From Bacteroidota bacterium (GTDB lineage: Bacteria > Bacteroidota > Bacteroidia > 2-12-FULL-35-15): a stretch of 64,000 nucleotides of DNA. A model generated the notes under the pieces. That model was not told where the DNA came from, did not search any database, and saw only the letters and a list, made by a program, of their open reading frames with translations. Shown here one piece after another: positions 14,100 to 35,771 of this stretch (its first letter is position 1; every line of letters starts with the position of its first letter). A program made the position numbers and the translations under genes. The DNA lies in assembly GCA_016722565.1 (NCBI GenBank), contig JADKIU010000007.1, positions 303,679 to 367,678 of the forward strand. The letters run 5' to 3'.

Positions 14100-14120
14100 T
14101 ATCATTCGAATTCATTCATA

Positions 14121-14163
14121 AAAAAATCCCGCTTCGTAAAATTACGAAGCGGGATTTTTTTTA
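14121..14163. terminator. bidirectional Rho-independent terminator between convergent genes
   Basis: Perfect hairpin ATCCCGCTTCGTA-aaat-TACGAAGCGGGAT with an A-run on one side and a T-run on the other. Confidence 0.8.
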
Positions 14164-17224: not shown

Positions 17225-17337
17225 TATTTTTTGGAGCAGTTCCAACATTTTTCATAACCAGCTCACACCCGCTTTCCGTTCCAATCTTTTTGTGAAAAAC
17301 AAAAAGGATTTTTACTTCAATCGGGGCTAAAAAGCAT

Positions 17338-18150
17338 TGGGTTGTTTTCCAAAAGTAAACTGATTCGCTGCTATCCCTAAGGCAGATAAGAGCTTCTGTC
17401 ATTTTTCATAGCCCCGATTGCAGAGAAAATCCTCAAGCGATAGCGAAGAGATTGAAACGAAAAGCGGGTGGATGATTAATACGGAGCGAAATAAAAATGC
17501 TCCAAAATATTTTATGTAGTATTAGGGCCTTCCCTTTCAGGGCGGGCTATTCGCTGCAATCTTTTTCGTACCTCAAAAGGATTTACGCTACTATCCCTAA
17601 GGCAGATAAGAGCTCCTGTCATTTTTCACAGCCCCGATTGCAGAGAAAATCCTCAAGCGATAGCGCAGAGATTGAAACGAAAAGCGGGTGAAGGATTAAT
17701 ACGGAGCGAAATAAAAATGCTCCAAAATATTTTATGTATTATTAGGGCCTTCCCTTTCAGGTCGGGCTATTCGCTGCAATCTTTTTCGTACCTCAAAAGG
17801 ATTTTCGCTGCTATCCCTAAGGCGAATCCATCACCTATTAATATTTATAGCCCCGATTGCAGAGAAAATCCTCAAGCGATAGCGCAGAGATTGAAACGAA
17901 AAGCGGGTGGATGATTAATACGGAGCGAAATAAAAATGCTCCAAAATATTTTATGTATTATTAGGGCCTTCCCTTTCAGGTCGGGCTATTCGCTGCAATC
18001 TTTTTCGTACCTCAAAAGGATTTACGCTACTATCCCTAAGGCAGATAAGAGCCTCTGTCATTTTTCATAGCCCCGATTGCAGAGAAAATCCTCAAGCGAT
18101 AGCGCAGAGATTGAAACGAAAAGCGGGTGGATGATTACTCCGGAGAAAAA
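17338..18150. repeat. tandem direct repeat with a roughly 220-bp unit and about 3.7 copies, noncoding
   Basis: The anchor CTATCCCTAA recurs at 17371, 17591, 17811 and 18030. The anchor GCCCCGATTG recurs at 17411, 17631, 17850 and 18070. Copies are more than 95% identical. In copy 3, a segment of about 30 bp at 17823-17848 has been replaced. Confidence 0.9.
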
Positions 18151-18168
18151 TATTAGTGCTTCAAGGAA

Positions 18169-30479: not shown

Positions 30480-32543
30480 ATGAAAAACACGAAAAATATT
30501 ATTGCCTTATTATTCCTGTTTGTGACTGTATCTACTTTTGCTCAAAGCAAAAGGGAATGGTTGGAATATGCTGATGCAGCTTACAAAAACGGAGATTATA
30601 AAACTGCTGTTACTTTCTATTTAAAAGTAGTAGACAAAGGAACAGCTGTAGATTATACACGCCCATACGAAGCAAAACCGTATACACCTCCTAAAAAAAT
30701 TAAAAAGGACAGCGCAAGTGTTCCAAAAGACACAACCGTTATTACTACTTCTGACCCTACCGAACAATATGCGATTCATCAAATTGCAGACAGCTATCGT
30801 TTAAACCACGATTATGCAAATGCTGAAATTTGGTTTAAAAAATCAGTAGACAATAAACCAACGGATTATCCTTACGAACGTTTTTGGTATGGTGATGCAT
30901 TGATGAAAAATCAACGTTATCCGGGTGCTGCGTATCAATTTGAGCAAGTGATGACCGAAGCAGAAGGAAAAGATTCTGCCATGTTCAAACAATCGAAATT
31001 AAAAATTGCTGGCTGTTATTTGGCAACAGATACTGCTAATAACAAAACAGGTGTTATCGTTACCAAAATAAAAGATTCGTTATTCAATTCCGGAACAGCT
31101 AGTTTCGCTGTGAACTATTATGGCGATGCAAACACCGTTCAGTTTACCACTGCACGTGACGGCAACACCGTTCTTGATCCAAAAAAACAAGATCCGAAAT
31201 ATGTTTGCGACATTTATACTTTAAAGAAAACAAATAGTGGCTGGACTGAATTAGCAAAAGTATCCGGACCGGCAAACACAGAAATGCACGAAGGTGCAGG
31301 ATTCCTTACCTTAGACAGAAGTAATTATTTCTTCACCCGTTGGTCAACCACCAACAAAAACGAATGTGCAATCTATCTTTCAAAAAACATGAACGATCGA
31401 TGGTTGGGTGCTGAAAAATTAAACGACAACGTAAACCTTGCAGGCTATAAAACCATGCATCCTTCTCTTTCTCCAGATGGAAGTATTTTATATTTCTCTT
31501 CCAACCGCCCGGGTGGTTTTGGGAAAATGGATTTATGGTATGTGAACCTAGATGATGATAGTCGTCCTGTTGGTTCACCAATCAACATGGGTCCTTTGTT
31601 TAATACATCAGAAGATGAGGTGACACCTTTCTTTCATTATTATACTTCAACCTTGTATTTCAGTTCTAACGGTCATCCTGGATTTGGTGGATTGGATATC
31701 TTCAAATCATCTTATAACAGCGATTCATTGTGGTCGGCTCCCAAAAATATGGGCGCACCTTTCAACTCTAGCAAGGAAGATTCCTACTTTGTTTTAGAGC
31801 GTAGTCAGCGTGCAGGCTTCTTAACATCCGACCGCGAAGAATGTAAAGATTGTACAGGTGGTGCTTGTTTAAAAATTTATTCCATTGAAAAAGATCCATT
31901 GGTATTTGATTTAAAAGGAACGGTTTACAATGCTGAAACGAATCAGGTGATTGCAAACTCCATGATTACATTAAAAGATATCCGTGGAGATAAAGAGCCA
32001 TTCTTCTTGTTTACTGATGCAGATGGTAATTATTTTACTGCATTAGACGAAGGAATGGAACTGTATCTAAAAGCACAGAAAAATAAATTCTTTGGTGATG
32101 CAGGAAACGTAACCACTTTGGGATTAACAGAATCTGCGCATTTAGTAAAAGATTTCTTCTTATCTCCAATTCCTTCAGGCGATATTGTGATTCCAGGAAT
32201 TGAGTACGATTTGGATAAAGCAACCTTACGTCCGGCTTCTAAAAAGATTTTGGATGACTTAGCTGACTTCTTGAACTTGAACAACAACTTAACGGTTGAG
32301 ATTAATTCACATACAGATGAGCGTGGTGGAGATGCATATAATATGCGATTATCACAGGAGCGAGCAAAATCCTGTGTCGACTACTTAATCTCGAAAGGTA
32401 TTGCTAAAGAACGATTGTTACCTCAAGGGTATGGAGAAACCAAATTGTTAATCCCTAAAGCAACTACTGAGGAAGAACACCAAAAGAACAGAAGAACTGC
32501 TTTCCGACCAATCAAAGAAGGAGATATCAGAACTACAAAATAA
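30480..32543 (+). CDS. OmpA-family protein with TPR-like and Tol-type beta-propeller regions
   Basis: Its start overlaps the sprF stop (TAGTTATG). The C-terminal OmpA_C region reads NSHTDERGGDAYNMRLSQERAKSCVDYL. Confidence 0.8.
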   Translation: MKNTKNIIALLFLFVTVSTFAQSKREWLEYADAAYKNGDYKTAVTFYLKVVDKGTAVDYTRPYEAKPYTPPKKIKKDSASVPKDTTVITTSDPTEQYAIHQIADSYRLNHDYANAEIWFKKSVDNKPTDYPYERFWYGDALMKNQRYPGAAYQFEQVMTEAEGKDSAMFKQSKLKIAGCYLATDTANNKTGVIVTKIKDSLFNSGTASFAVNYYGDANTVQFTTARDGNTVLDPKKQDPKYVCDIYTLKKTNSGWTELAKVSGPANTEMHEGAGFLTLDRSNYFFTRWSTTNKNECAIYLSKNMNDRWLGAEKLNDNVNLAGYKTMHPSLSPDGSILYFSSNRPGGFGKMDLWYVNLDDDSRPVGSPINMGPLFNTSEDEVTPFFHYYTSTLYFSSNGHPGFGGLDIFKSSYNSDSLWSAPKNMGAPFNSSKEDSYFVLERSQRAGFLTSDREECKDCTGGACLKIYSIEKDPLVFDLKGTVYNAETNQVIANSMITLKDIRGDKEPFFLFTDADGNYFTALDEGMELYLKAQKNKFFGDAGNVTTLGLTESAHLVKDFFLSPIPSGDIVIPGIEYDLDKATLRPASKKILDDLADFLNLNNNLTVEINSHTDERGGDAYNMRLSQERAKSCVDYLISKGIAKERLLPQGYGETKLLIPKATTEEEHQKNRRTAFRPIKEGDIRTTK

Positions 32544-32548
32544 AATCA

Positions 32549-32583
32549 AAAACCCAAACAGGAATGTTTGGGTTTTTTGTTTG
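32549..32583 (+). terminator. Rho-independent terminator
   Basis: Hairpin AACCCAAACA-ggaa-TGTTTGGGTT followed by TTTTTTGTTTG. Confidence 0.7.
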
Positions 32584-32593
32584 ATTCATTTTA

Positions 32594-32821: not shown

Positions 32822-33283
32822 TTATTTAGGAGTACCTGGTGTAATATCACCAGGTGCTTTTGGCAACCAGCAACCTTCGTACTTAAATGTTAGTTTACTA
32901 TAATAGTCGCTGCTATAAAATCCAACTCTGTCCAAAGTAGCATCAATTTCCGACTGATCTAATCCTGCTGTTTCGCGCAAACTCAAAACATAAATCCAGT
33001 TTTCTTTTTTACACATCCAAGAGCCATACATCTTGTAGTTAATCTCCAAAAGATCCCATGCAAATTCATCTTTCTTTTTATCCGGTACTGCGCACAACGG
33101 GCTCATTACTTGTAAATAAAATTTTCCGGGAGTGGTTGAAAAATCAAATACATCAATCCAAACACTTGCATCTTTAATCTTAATGGACCATTGTCCGGGT
33201 TTTGCCCCGCGACTAGCCGCTACATCCAATTTTAATCCGGCTATACTGTTTTCTATCAGCTTTCCTGTCTCTTCTATGTTCAT
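32822..33283 (-). CDS. hypothetical protein, possibly YbjN-domain-like
   Basis: 153 aa, soluble. I judged it YbjN-like only from its size and composition, so this is low-confidence. Confidence 0.45.
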   Translation of the reverse strand: MNIEETGKLIENSIAGLKLDVAASRGAKPGQWSIKIKDASVWIDVFDFSTTPGKFYLQVMSPLCAVPDKKKDEFAWDLLEINYKMYGSWMCKKENWIYVLSLRETAGLDQSEIDATLDRVGFYSSDYYSKLTFKYEGCWLPKAPGDITPGTPK

Positions 33284-33386
33284 GTTATAAACCTTTTAAT
33301 TAAACGTATTAAAAATAGTAAATATTCTTGTTTGAAAAAATATTTTTTTGAGGATTTCGCTTCGGAAAAGGAAATCCTTTGAAGCC

Positions 33387-33469
33387 GTCATTGCGAGGAA
33401 CGAAGCAATCTCAGCCCATTGGTCACGCTAGTCTTCATCTTGAGAGATTGCTTCGTTCCTCGCAATGAC
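33387..33469. repeat. perfect 26-bp inverted repeat (hairpin) with a 31-nt loop in a divergent intergenic region
   Basis: GTCATTGCGAGGAACGAAGCAATCTC at 33387-33412 is the exact reverse complement of 33444-33469. Confidence 0.9.
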
Positions 33470-33611
33470 GCTGCGCAATCGGAGCAATCGCCCCTCTCTA
33501 TTGGAGAAGGGTTGGATGAGGTCAGAAACGACAAAAATAATTGAAAATAATTTTGGTTTATATTATAAACTAATTTACATTTGTCAAATATTTACATAAA
33601 TCAAGTCGTTT

Positions 33612-35771
33612 ATGAATCGTATTTTATTCACCTTTACATTGATTCTATTGAGTTTCCAAGGAGTATTGGCGCAAACCAAAGTTTCCGGCAAAATCCTCGA
33701 CCAGAAAAAACAACCCCTACCCGGAGTGAACGTTTTTATAAAAGACACCTATGATGGTGCCTCTACCGGTGCGGATGGAACCTTCTCCTTCACCGCGGCA
33801 GATACTGGAGACGTTATCATCGTTTGCAGCTTCATCGGTTTTGAACAAATTGAAAAAAAGATCAAACTCACAAGCATCGATTTCACATTTAACACCACCA
33901 TGAAGGAATCCTTAAACGAATTAAAAGTGGTGACCATCTCCGCAGGAACCATTGAAGCCAGCGATGAGAAAAAAACAACCGTATTAAAACCACTCGACAT
34001 TGTTACCACTGCCGGTGCGCAAGGAGATATTGTGGGAGCTTTAAAAACATTACCGGGTGCACAACAAGTGGGTGAGTCGGAAGGACTCTTTGTGAGAGGT
34101 GGTGACGGAAGTGAAACAAAAACCATCATCGATGGAATGGTCGTAAATAAACCATTCTTCAGCGCTGCTCCCGATATCGCCTCGCGTGGACGCTTTTCTC
34201 CTTTCTTATTTAAAGGAACAGTTTTTAGTACCGGTGGATATTCGGCTCAATACGGACAAGGAATGTCATCGGTATTAGCATTGGAAACACAAGATTTACC
34301 AGCACAAACATCCTCTACTCTTGCTATTTCATCCGTAGGTATTGGTGGAGGTTATAATAAATTATGGAAGGAAAAAAACATGAGTGTTGGATTTGATTTG
34401 AACTATGCCAACCTACTACCTTATTTTAAATTAGTCAAACAAACTCCCGAATATACCAGAGCGCCACAATTTTCCGGTGGCTCTCTGAACTTCCGTAAAA
34501 AAACTTCTACCACCGGAATGCTCAAATTTTACGGGTATTTTAACCTTTCGGATTTAGGAATTAAAACACTCAGCATCGATAGCACCAACGGATTCAAAAA
34601 TTTATTCGAATTAAATAACTCCGATGTATATACCAACCTTACCTATAAAGAACGTTTGGGTGAAAAGCTCTTAATGAACATTGGCGCATCTTACAGCACC
34701 AATGTGGATAACATACGCACCTGGACCGATTCCATCCGTTCACAAAGTGACATGACACAAGGACGAATTGTATTTAGCAGAGGCATCGGAAAATTATCCA
34801 TGCTCCGCATCGGTGCAGAATACCAATACACCTATGACGATGTAAAAATTGATGGTGCAGCATCAGGTTATGGATACCATATCCGAAATACAATTTATGA
34901 TAACTACTCTGCACAATTTGTAGAAGCAGATATTTACATTACACAAAAATTAGTGTGGCGTGCAGGTGCCCGTGGTGAGCATTCTACCTTAGAAAAAGAA
35001 TATGTAATTTCTCCGCGTACTTCTGTTGCATATAAAGTGGGAGAAAAAAGTCAGCTCTCATTGGCGTACGGACAGTTTTATCAAAAACCGGACAGAACCT
35101 ATTTGTTTTATCCGCAGATTCCCGGCTACAACAAAGCAACACATTACATCGCGAACATTCAGCGTGTGGATGATTTTCACACCTTGCGTGCCGAAATCTA
35201 TTATAAAAAATACGATAATCTTACCAACCTAAACGATTCAACCAATTCAGGATATGGGTATGCACAAGGATTAGATGTTTTTTGGAGAGATAAAAAAACC
35301 ATCAAAGGTGTAGATTATTGGATTTCGTATACCTATTTAGAAACAAAACGCAAATACCAAAACTATCCCAAAGAAGTGACACCACCATTTGCGGCAAAAC
35401 ATACAGCATCACTGGTATTCAAAAAGTTTTTTGAAAAATTAAACTTGAGCAGTGGATTCACCTACACCTATGCAAGCGGTCGACCATACTACAATCCAAA
35501 CAACCCGGAATTTATGAGTGACCGAACCATTGATTATCATTCATTGGGAATCAATGGCGCCTACTTGCGACAAATAAAAAATTGTTTTGCAGTGTTAGCA
35601 TTTTCAGTAACCAACACGATTGGCAATGAGCAAATTTTCGGATACCGCTACTCGTACGATGGAAAACAAAGTGCAGCAATAACGCCTCCTGCTAAACGCT
35701 TTTTCTTTGTAGGCTTATTTTTATCGTTTGGACAAAATCGTTCGAAAGAAGTAATCGATAATAACAATTAG
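33612..35771 (+). CDS. TonB-dependent outer-membrane receptor with an N-terminal carboxypeptidase-regulatory-like domain
   Basis: Signal peptide, then the CarboxypepD_reg-like VSGKILDQKKQPLPGVNVFIKDT, then plug and beta-barrel regions. 719 aa. Confidence 0.85.
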   Translation: MNRILFTFTLILLSFQGVLAQTKVSGKILDQKKQPLPGVNVFIKDTYDGASTGADGTFSFTAADTGDVIIVCSFIGFEQIEKKIKLTSIDFTFNTTMKESLNELKVVTISAGTIEASDEKKTTVLKPLDIVTTAGAQGDIVGALKTLPGAQQVGESEGLFVRGGDGSETKTIIDGMVVNKPFFSAAPDIASRGRFSPFLFKGTVFSTGGYSAQYGQGMSSVLALETQDLPAQTSSTLAISSVGIGGGYNKLWKEKNMSVGFDLNYANLLPYFKLVKQTPEYTRAPQFSGGSLNFRKKTSTTGMLKFYGYFNLSDLGIKTLSIDSTNGFKNLFELNNSDVYTNLTYKERLGEKLLMNIGASYSTNVDNIRTWTDSIRSQSDMTQGRIVFSRGIGKLSMLRIGAEYQYTYDDVKIDGAASGYGYHIRNTIYDNYSAQFVEADIYITQKLVWRAGARGEHSTLEKEYVISPRTSVAYKVGEKSQLSLAYGQFYQKPDRTYLFYPQIPGYNKATHYIANIQRVDDFHTLRAEIYYKKYDNLTNLNDSTNSGYGYAQGLDVFWRDKKTIKGVDYWISYTYLETKRKYQNYPKEVTPPFAAKHTASLVFKKFFEKLNLSSGFTYTYASGRPYYNPNNPEFMSDRTIDYHSLGINGAYLRQIKNCFAVLAFSVTNTIGNEQIFGYRYSYDGKQSAAITPPAKRFFFVGLFLSFGQNRSKEVIDNNN

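Follow-up and report, generated by a model that had tools for sequence, protein, structure and literature searches.

What is a perfect inverted repeat doing in the gap between two divergent genes of a Bacteroidota bacterium? The repeat lies upstream of a gene for a TonB-dependent receptor in a 64,000-nucleotide stretch of the metagenomic contig JADKIU010000007.1 (hereafter the window, numbered from its first letter), and an earlier reading made from the letters of the DNA (the sequence-only reading) had considered a miniature mobile element, a bidirectional terminator or attenuator, and an operator. From comparison with other retrieved loci and contigs, which carry L-numbers below, we propose that the hairpin is probably a gene-less inverted dimer of a dispersed unit of about 25 nt. 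This unit would be a CGTC-tagged relative of the repetitive extragenic palindromes (REPs) within the superfamily of Ssn-related motifs (SRMs), and its dimer would be built like a REPIN, an inverted doublet of REPs.

The inverted repeat and its dispersed unit

Both arms were recovered exactly where the sequence-only reading had placed them. The 26-bp repeat extends to arms of 27 nt (33386-33412 and 33444-33470), which are 100% complementary in an inverted-repeat search and lie 31 nt apart. That such a repeat is far beyond chance was borne out as well, since the 26-mer match was reproduced in 0 of 100 dinucleotide shuffles and the predicted fold reaches -81.7 kcal/mol on the + strand (z = -6.1 against shuffles) and -79.3 kcal/mol on the - strand (z = -7.1). 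The repeat belongs to a GC island at about 33350-33520 with a GC content of 50-55%, against 17-23% in the surrounding intergenic DNA. Each arm holds one repeat unit with its tag facing outward, pairing between the arms runs 2 bp past the units (TC/GA at 33411-33412 and 33444-33445), and the whole dimer measures 85 bp. The sequence-only reading had held that a single-copy element, with no differential expression or read-through termination nearby, would speak against a mobile or RNA-level role; the arm is indeed single-copy inside the window, where the 26-mer has no further copy even at 3 mismatches, but the family is multi-copy elsewhere.

The extent of this family emerged from a scan of a collection of species-representative genomes for the exact 22-nt arm core, CATTGCGAGGAACGAAGCAATC, the counts being samples and not a census. 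The core is present without change in at least 120 genomic loci, mostly of Bacteroidota, and in 39 predicted viral contigs. Among the matches listed, the isolates belong to Flavobacterium, Mucilaginibacter, Sphingobacterium, Lacinutrix, Polaribacter, Flavisolibacter and Flavihumibacter, further carriers include Chitinophagaceae, Bacteroidales and many Bacteroidota metagenome-assembled genomes (MAGs), and several genomes hold multiple copies. Among the carriers with complete genomes are Mucilaginibacter sp. SMC90 (CP094527) and Chitinophagaceae MMS25-I14 (CP197396). Read in register, 158 exact copies define a self-contained unit, (C/T)GTCATTGCGAGGAACGAAGCAATC. Solitary copies account for 82 of these, 60 form tags-outward pairs, 8 form tags-inward pairs and 10 stand beside direct copies, tandem arrays included; the dimers of the viral set comprise 11 tags-outward and 0 tags-inward. 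Tags-outward spacers have a median of 32 nt and a mode of 31-34 nt, so the 31 nt in the window represent the modal geometry. Units are strongly intergenic, with 21% of them inside open reading frames (ORFs) of at least 120 aa as compared with 84% of all bases. Spacers are alike only within genera (Mucilaginibacter; Flavobacterium), and that of the window is unlike any of the 32 others compared with it; a single ancient dimer whose spacer was kept across genomes was therefore rejected for the window.

The size of the arms had invited comparison with the terminal inverted repeats (TIRs) of Correia elements and of miniature inverted-repeat transposable elements (MITEs). An element derived by deletion from a DDE-type insertion sequence (IS), with the 26-27-bp arms as its TIRs, would account for an element of about 85 bp with perfect inverted ends and for its many copies across genomes, and the comparison holds insofar as the element is miniature, dispersed and multi-copy. 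However, solitary arms and direct tandem arrays are unlike TIRs, no IS or transposase with the same arms was found, and the spacers vary by lineage while the arms stay identical. Target-site duplications, proposed by the sequence-only reading as something to look for, are lacking from the flanks of 32 dimers. The arms behave as self-contained units, and we consider derivation from a DDE-type IS very improbable.

Some copies occur in other arrangements. In Sphingobacterium-like genomes (L081 5307-5430; L097 7633-7750; L044; L090), direct tandem arrays of the unit with a period of about 33 nt are followed by sister units that share the frame and have another stem (GTCATGCTGAGCGAAGTCGAAGCATC, GTCATCCTGAGCGAAGTCGAAGGATC), a sign that several specificities may reside together. 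On two contigs of cyanobacterial MAGs (L031 3254-3275; L114 2204-2225), the unit lies within a longer repeat, with conserved sequence to its left and right (gtacctaagcaaaattaattgt.tattgt / unit / ...gaagattttaraatgttaaattaatt); provided that these contigs were binned correctly, another phylum carries a composite element. A BLASTN search of the island against PLSDB plasmids gave no match, the arms being too short to reach significance, and a full-text literature search for the repeat sequence returned unrelated primers only.

Small GIY-YIG genes beside the unit

Which gene, if any, accompanies the unit was addressed by unbiased clustering of all ORFs in 120 unit-bearing loci. The sole ORF family concentrated beside units encodes a protein of about 100 aa with a single domain, Pfam GIY-YIG (PF01541). 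Its gene occurs in 4 of the 120 genomic loci and 1 of the 39 viral loci, in all five cases within 372 bp of a unit and in four of them within 70 bp. Examples of genes next to a unit lie at L010 1598-1937 in Lacinutrix venerupis DSM 28755 and at L048 3014-3329 in Flavobacterium nitrogenifigens NXU-44. A PDB sequence search with this GIY-YIG neighbour found no relative. No transposase family appeared among the clustered ORFs neighbouring units, and a Y1 transposase probe, serving purely as bait for homologues, gave one marginal match (E 0.019) in about 1 Mb of unit loci, kilobases from any unit. These results bear on a REPIN in the strict sense, that is, an inverted REP doublet mobilised by a RAYT transposase of the Y1/HUH type. 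Two inverted, imperfectly palindromic units with a short spacer, intergenic and free of target-site duplications, would suit such an element well, but the tag is CGTC and not GTAG, neither the probe nor the ORF clustering placed a transposase near the units, and CGTC repeats are reported not to flank RAYT genes (PMC3733652). A strict REPIN is accordingly an explanation to which we attach very little probability.

The reciprocal test of the association between unit and gene is decisive. Here, 80 metagenomic loci encoding relatives of the GIY-YIG protein at 50-81% identity were taken as the starting point, 75 of which were scored for flanking units, a unit being defined as GTCATTGCGA with at most 1 mismatch followed by RMRGCAATC. 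Within 200 bp of the gene there are 4.94 units per kb, as compared with 0.10/kb beyond 600 bp. A unit is present on at least one side in 56 of the 75 loci and on both sides in 39, and 26 have the canonical layout, in which a + unit precedes the gene, a - unit follows it and the tags face outward. At the level of the family, repeats thus flank small single-domain GIY-YIG genes, often on both sides, as SRMs do. Four of these loci (L163, L185, L191 and L199) have a GIY-YIG gene flanked instead by canonical published SRMs of the type of NTS, the Neisseria Transformation Sequence, and in L191 TCGTCATTCCCGCGCAGGCGGGAATCCGC stands on both sides of the gene. In many spacers TGA abuts GATTGC; the idea that it is the relic of a GIY-YIG stop codon was dropped, because it is indistinguishable from the TCA tail of the unit.

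The 194 family units that adjoin GIY-YIG genes also reveal the anatomy of the unit, for which the consensus reads Y-GTC / ATTGC / GAG - variable inner stem-loop - CGAA / GCAAT / C-Y. The boxes are conserved, and the inner segments comprise 141 distinct sequences among the 194 units. The outer 5-bp ATTGC/GCAAT stem is part of the minimum free energy fold in 112 of 122 units, the inner segments fold better than their own shuffles (mean z -1.7), and inner stems vary in a compensatory manner (for example CCGCCG/CGGCGG and TCAC/GTGA). Of the 194 units, 184 have a C or T ahead of GTC, and every one has a T or C behind GCAATC. The arms in the window represent the shortest form, with the inner segment GGAACGAA and no inner stem, and this shortest form is the version that is conserved to the base across classes.

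The closest characterised counterpart is SsnA, a 94-aa single-domain GIY-YIG protein that binds and cuts NTS (CGTCATTCCCGCGMAVGCGGGAATCYRG), the extended form of dRS3 (Chenal et al. 2025, PMC11893778). SsnA cuts single-stranded DNA (ssDNA) only, on one strand only and a few nt upstream of the motif; the three bases that precede the palindrome on its 5' side are required for cleavage, and the C immediately 3' of it for binding (PMC11893778). Genes of the ssn family are typically flanked by SRMs in an IS-like NTS-ssnA-NTS layout, and the analogy with IS elements is put forward there as a hypothesis (PMC11893778). The Bacteroidota GIY-YIG protein is 50-53% identical (E 1e-34) to proteins with canonical NTS flanks, and by this identity the unit-flanked proteins probably belong to the Ssn family (cd10448). 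Since such Ssn-like GIY-YIG genes are flanked by the same unit family in the same tags-outward geometry, the dimer in the window looks like a unit-gene-unit arrangement in which the gene has been swapped for a short spacer, much as a REPIN relates to the RAYT 'REPtron'.

By analogy with SsnA and NTS (PMC11893778), a plausible course of events can be outlined for the dimer. In a single-stranded state, such as lagging-strand replication, conjugative or transforming DNA, or phage DNA, each strand would expose one unit in the sense orientation, near its 5' side, which a putative cognate Ssn-like nuclease encoded in trans would bind and nick a few nt 5' of GTC. Pairing of the two arms over 27 bp would render the motif double-stranded and so hide it from an enzyme that acts on ssDNA only. 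The spread and turnover of units would then depend on the cognate enzyme together with recombination. A bolder and rather doubtful extension is that the dimer is a non-autonomous mobile element for which an Ssn-type GIY-YIG nuclease serves as the 'transposase', with unit-ssn-unit as the autonomous form; dimers would be copied in trans by way of ssDNA hairpins, intermediates with a preference for landing in other hairpin loops. If this were true, a GIY-YIG nuclease would play the part that RAYTs play for REPINs, and the element would spread over Bacteroidota classes, other phyla and phages with its 22-nt core unchanged.

History of the locus and its other repeats

How the dimer came to lie between these two genes can be read from related contigs that share the locus (features in Table 1). 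Eight sister contigs (L121-L124, L126-L128 and L130) keep the island with two changes in the left arm (AGTCATTGTGAGG) and a spacer 2 nt shorter; the perfection of the repeat is therefore strain-specific. The dimer is absent from L125, in which the flanking gene is 97.4% identical and the AT-rich flanks are identical, and where module C, a second miniature repeat of the island, is split (CCCCTCTCC...GGGAGAG..GGGGTGAGGT) by a nested palindrome, CCCGATAGCTATCGGG. In L250 (94% protein identity), an intact module C with its 5' flank CAATCGGAGC is followed by a solo long-form unit on the - strand (CGTCATTGCGAG-TCCCGC-ATTTTC-GCGGGA-TGTG-GCAATC), and the outgroup orthologue L252, at 85% protein identity and with the same TonB receptor gene in divergent orientation, has an AT-rich spacer of 140 nt and no island. 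Relative to L125 and L250, the lineage of the window and L121 has gained approximately 33359-33475, which consists of a 27-nt hairpin-capable segment, the 85-bp dimer and CTGCG, and no target duplication accompanies this gain.

Table 1 Features of the repeat island and the adjoining genes, in window coordinates
Feature	Position	Strand	Remarks
YbjN-domain-like protein gene, 153 aa	32822..33283	-	Named after NCBI homologues; no Pfam match; reads away from the island
Hairpin-capable segment GCTTCGGAAAAGGAAATCCTTTGAAGC	33359..33385	.	27 nt, directly 5' of the left tag
Left repeat unit	33386..33410	+	Tag CGTC 33386-33389; outer stem ATTGC 33390-33394; GAGGAACGAA 33395-33404; GCAAT 33405-33409; invariant C 33410; minimal family form, without inner hairpin
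Spacer between the arms of the units	33413..33443	.	31 nt; sequence lineage-specific
Right repeat unit	33446..33470	-	Reads GATTGCTTCGTTCCTCGCAATGACG on the + strand
Module C, second and unrelated miniature repeat	33476..33521	+	5' flank CAATCGGAGC..., then CCCCTCTCTATTGGAGAAGGGTTGGATGAGG
Candidate Bacteroidota-type promoter of the receptor gene	33552..33583	+	TTTG-N20-TACATTTG; 28 nt upstream of ATG 33612
TonB-dependent receptor gene, 719 aa	33612..35771	+	CarboxypepD_reg and Plug domains; reads away from the island

Close lineages at 97-98% flank identity thus carry different mosaics of miniature repeats. Because the relatives' contigs are filled differently at this site, we regard the island as DNA inserted in a hotspot, where units of the family were acquired independently at least twice; that the element is dispersed and not specific to this locus is also seen from its absence or replacement at the orthologous site in relatives. 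The gap between the two divergent promoters is permissive, a hotspot for a mosaic of repeats, and the element sits within it. Taken by itself, the locus is unremarkable, with a miniature repeat, selfish or neutral, between two promoters. The wider gene context in the window includes T9SS PorP/SprF and CHU_C genes, which together with matches to Flavo-1 place the window in Bacteroidota.

The same comparison bears on a local role in cis, be it as an attenuator, as a terminator or insulator acting in both directions, or as a palindromic operator at which a dimeric regulator of the TonB receptor gene would bind, most of which had been raised by the sequence-only reading. A hairpin that is very stable on both strands and lies upstream of a receptor gene is what such a role would call for. 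However, both genes point away from the island, neither strand has a T-tract, an intrinsic terminator scan of 33200-33700 found 0 sites, and the candidate promoter lies outside the island, on its downstream side. The promoter pattern is not enriched across the window and is weak evidence by itself, and the block TGTTATAAACTAATTTACATTT at this promoter is conserved even in the island-free L252. A sigma-70 promoter scan gave one match, no more than shuffles did and of a promoter type unsuited to Bacteroidota. The repeat is missing from strains and orthologues that have the two genes, as L125, L250 and L252 keep both of them and the promoter block without the dimer, and the same sequence stands beside unrelated genes in more than 100 genomes. 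Because the genes diverge, no T-tract or terminator is present, the promoter lies downstream and relatives do without the dimer, local regulation is unlikely: the terminator and attenuator proposals did not hold up, an operator fares little better, and we regard a cis-regulator of any of these kinds as highly improbable. Most likely, the element has no dedicated regulatory role for either the YbjN-like or the TonB receptor gene. Terminator-like hairpins do occur at gene ends elsewhere in the window (32539-32586 and 14120-14161, with 22-bp and 20-bp arms and A/T runs), in contrast to the T-less hairpin at 33386-33470.

The island holds further palindromes. A second hairpin noted at 33351-33378 does have arms of 8 bp (AGGATTTC/GAAATCCT at 33351-33358/33371-33378), but the strain comparison assigns them different origins, the left arm being ancestral flank and the right arm inserted DNA. 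Read by eye, the inserted segment 33359-33385 offers an alternative hairpin (GCTTC-GG-AAAGGA-AA-TCCTTT-GAAGC); the segment is present in the lineage of the window and L121, absent in L125, L250 and L252, and without a second copy in the sequences compared. The GC-rich imperfect palindrome described further downstream is real but better placed at 33491-33511 (CCCCTCTC/GAGAAGGG), where it is the core of a separate repeat module at 33491-33521. This core of module C is a degenerate copy of CCCCTCTCCTTTGGAGAGGGGTTGGGGTGAGG, the consensus in other Bacteroidota (L054, L014, L036), with copies at L054 1263-1294, at L014 327-348 and in the orthologous region of L250 and L125; no associated gene and no literature were found for it. 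Positions 33475-33489 (GCAATCGGAGCAATC) were considered as decayed 3' halves of units, which was rejected since CAATCGGAGC is the 5' flank of module C that L250 has in common with the window. The 16-bp perfect palindrome CCCGATAGCTATCGGG, which splits module C in L125, recurs at L075 1428-1443, L108 2221-2236 and L037 5573-5588, and in three unrelated sources it is nested in module-C-like repeats (..GGAGAGT/palindrome/AGGGGTGAGG..); it is a third miniature insert, with an apparent preference for the module-C-like hairpin.

Nesting of this kind is common, and miniature repeats insert into or beside each other's hairpins. In Flavobacterium genomes, the unit is nested in Flavo-1 motifs at L116 6605-6712 and L035 6579-6686 (a match of 108 nt to a model of 76 nt) and lies 5-25 nt from Flavo-1 at L001 2540-2663 and L089 2732-2852. 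Within the window, eight matches to Flavo-1 RNA (RF01705) above the gathering score, on alternating strands, occupy 17261-18152, in or just upstream of a tandem array of 220 bp x 3.6 (92% matches) in which each 220-bp repeat contains two oppositely oriented Flavo-1-like hairpins. Flavo-1 therefore looks like a DNA-level repeat and not a conventional small RNA gene.

A structured small RNA or a cis-acting RNA element could likewise be considered for the repeat in the window, given its strong predicted fold, the compensatory variation of inner stems among family units, and the occurrence of units together with, and nested inside, Flavo-1 'RNA' motifs. Yet no Rfam family matches, units occur in both orientations with inverted pairs dominant, the island shows no evident promoter ahead of the hairpin, and the conserved unpaired tag together with the link to an ssDNA-specific nuclease points to recognition at the DNA level. 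Rfam 15 scans at gathering and lenient thresholds gave only sub-threshold plant and insect microRNA matches and a weak SAM-I/IV match, all of them attributable to the long perfect hairpin, in agreement with the sequence-only reading, which saw no B12 or TPP riboswitch signature. An RNA element is thus hardly credible as an explanation. Small ORFs of 41-48 aa cross the island (33388-33534 on the - strand; 33419-33544 and 33465-33599 on the + strand), and similar ORFs running through units cluster across genomes (for example ...VIARNEAI...); they are likely annotation artefacts.

Comparison with known repeat systems

The gene-less dimer of a CGTC-tagged unit has its nearest likeness in two overlapping groups of repeats. 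The first is SRM/NTS, with which the unit shares (i) an unpaired YGTC tag 5' of a palindrome ATT...AAT, behind which stand an invariant C and a Y (NTS CGTCATTCCCGCG...CGGGAATCY as compared with CGTCATTGCGAG...GAAGCAATCT in the unit); (ii) small single-domain GIY-YIG genes flanked on both sides in inverted orientation; and (iii) a mostly intergenic, clustered and mosaic occurrence. The window unit keeps the framing positions critical for SsnA, CGTC-ATT...AAT-C-T, including the HGTC tag and the 3' C. It differs in its bipartite stem, in which an outer stem of 5 bp is followed by an internal loop, GAG/CGAA, and by an inner hairpin that varies among units and is lacking from the window form, and Bacteroidota hosts are not discussed in the text of PMC11893778. 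The second group comprises the CGTC-tagged REPs defined by Di Nocera, De Gregorio & Rocco 2013 (PMC3733652), in which Neisseria dRS3 is CGTC-1 and Rickettsia RPE-4/6 are included, and which occur mainly as inverted dimers and have no transposase (PMC3733652). Our unit agrees with them in its unpaired CGTC/TGTC tag, a stem opening with A-T and T-A pairs, a short tail, the dominance of inverted dimers (20-100-bp spacers), the lack of a transposase, a multi-copy and intergenic distribution, and presence in Bacteroidetes.

Several observations weigh against this placement. CGTC families have a stem of 8-9 bp and a loop of 4-5 nt, whereas the window unit has a 5-bp stem with a 10-nt interior, and the long-form units of the family fold into a two-tier hairpin unlike the described CGTC families. 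The published SRM pattern, HGTCWYN(0-2)YYVSBRHN(0-5)WNVSBRGN(0-2)RNCYNB (PMC11893778), hits the NTS control and neither arm, with 0 matches in the whole window. Neither the window nor the sister contigs contain a GIY-YIG gene of the unit-associated family, and such a gene is nearby in only 5 of 159 loci selected by the unit. All carriers from outside Bacteroidota are MAGs that could have been mis-binned (among the matches listed, a few Comamonadaceae, Anaerolineaceae, Peregrinibacteria and a cyanobacterium). The sequences compared include no clean pair of dimer insertion and excision with defined junctions; mobility of the dimer as one piece is what we infer from its geometry, and binding or cutting of ssDNA by the Bacteroidota homologues is what we infer by analogy with SsnA. 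Because the pattern fails and the stem and loop differ from those of the four described CGTC families, we file the window unit as a new sequence subfamily of the CGTC-REP/SRM kind and not as a canonical SRM.

On this placement, the published SRM search pattern passes over a Bacteroidota branch of the CGTC-REP/SRM world that is very large and uniform in sequence. The small GIY-YIG genes flanked by GTCATTGCGA...GCAATC provide candidate pairs of enzyme and site, which could extend the toolbox of sequence-specific ssDNA nucleases and could be used to test whether Ssn-type nucleases restrict ssDNA only or spread their own repeats. For annotation, units yield spurious small ORFs and distort Flavo-1 matches when nested.

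Other systems are similar in part. Correia elements and MITEs are likewise small, with inverted ends and many copies, often near promoters; they differ in that their TIRs are not free-standing, that they make TA or other target duplications and that they originate from DDE-type IS elements, none of which is seen here. The packing and nesting of unrelated miniature palindromes with strain-variable content recalls bacterial interspersed mosaic elements (BIMEs) and the mosaic intergenic regions of Neisseria, in other repeat families and another host phylum. REPINs and RAYTs (Bertels & Rainey 2011, PMC3116915) are distinguished by a GTAG tag in place of CGTC, by an HUH/Y1 transposase in place of a GIY-YIG nuclease, and by a replicative mobility that is known for REPINs. 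The architecture is nevertheless the same, as both are intergenic and non-autonomous elements without target-site duplications, in which two inverted REPs and a spacer make up one long hairpin, the gene-less counterpart of a gene flanked by REPs.

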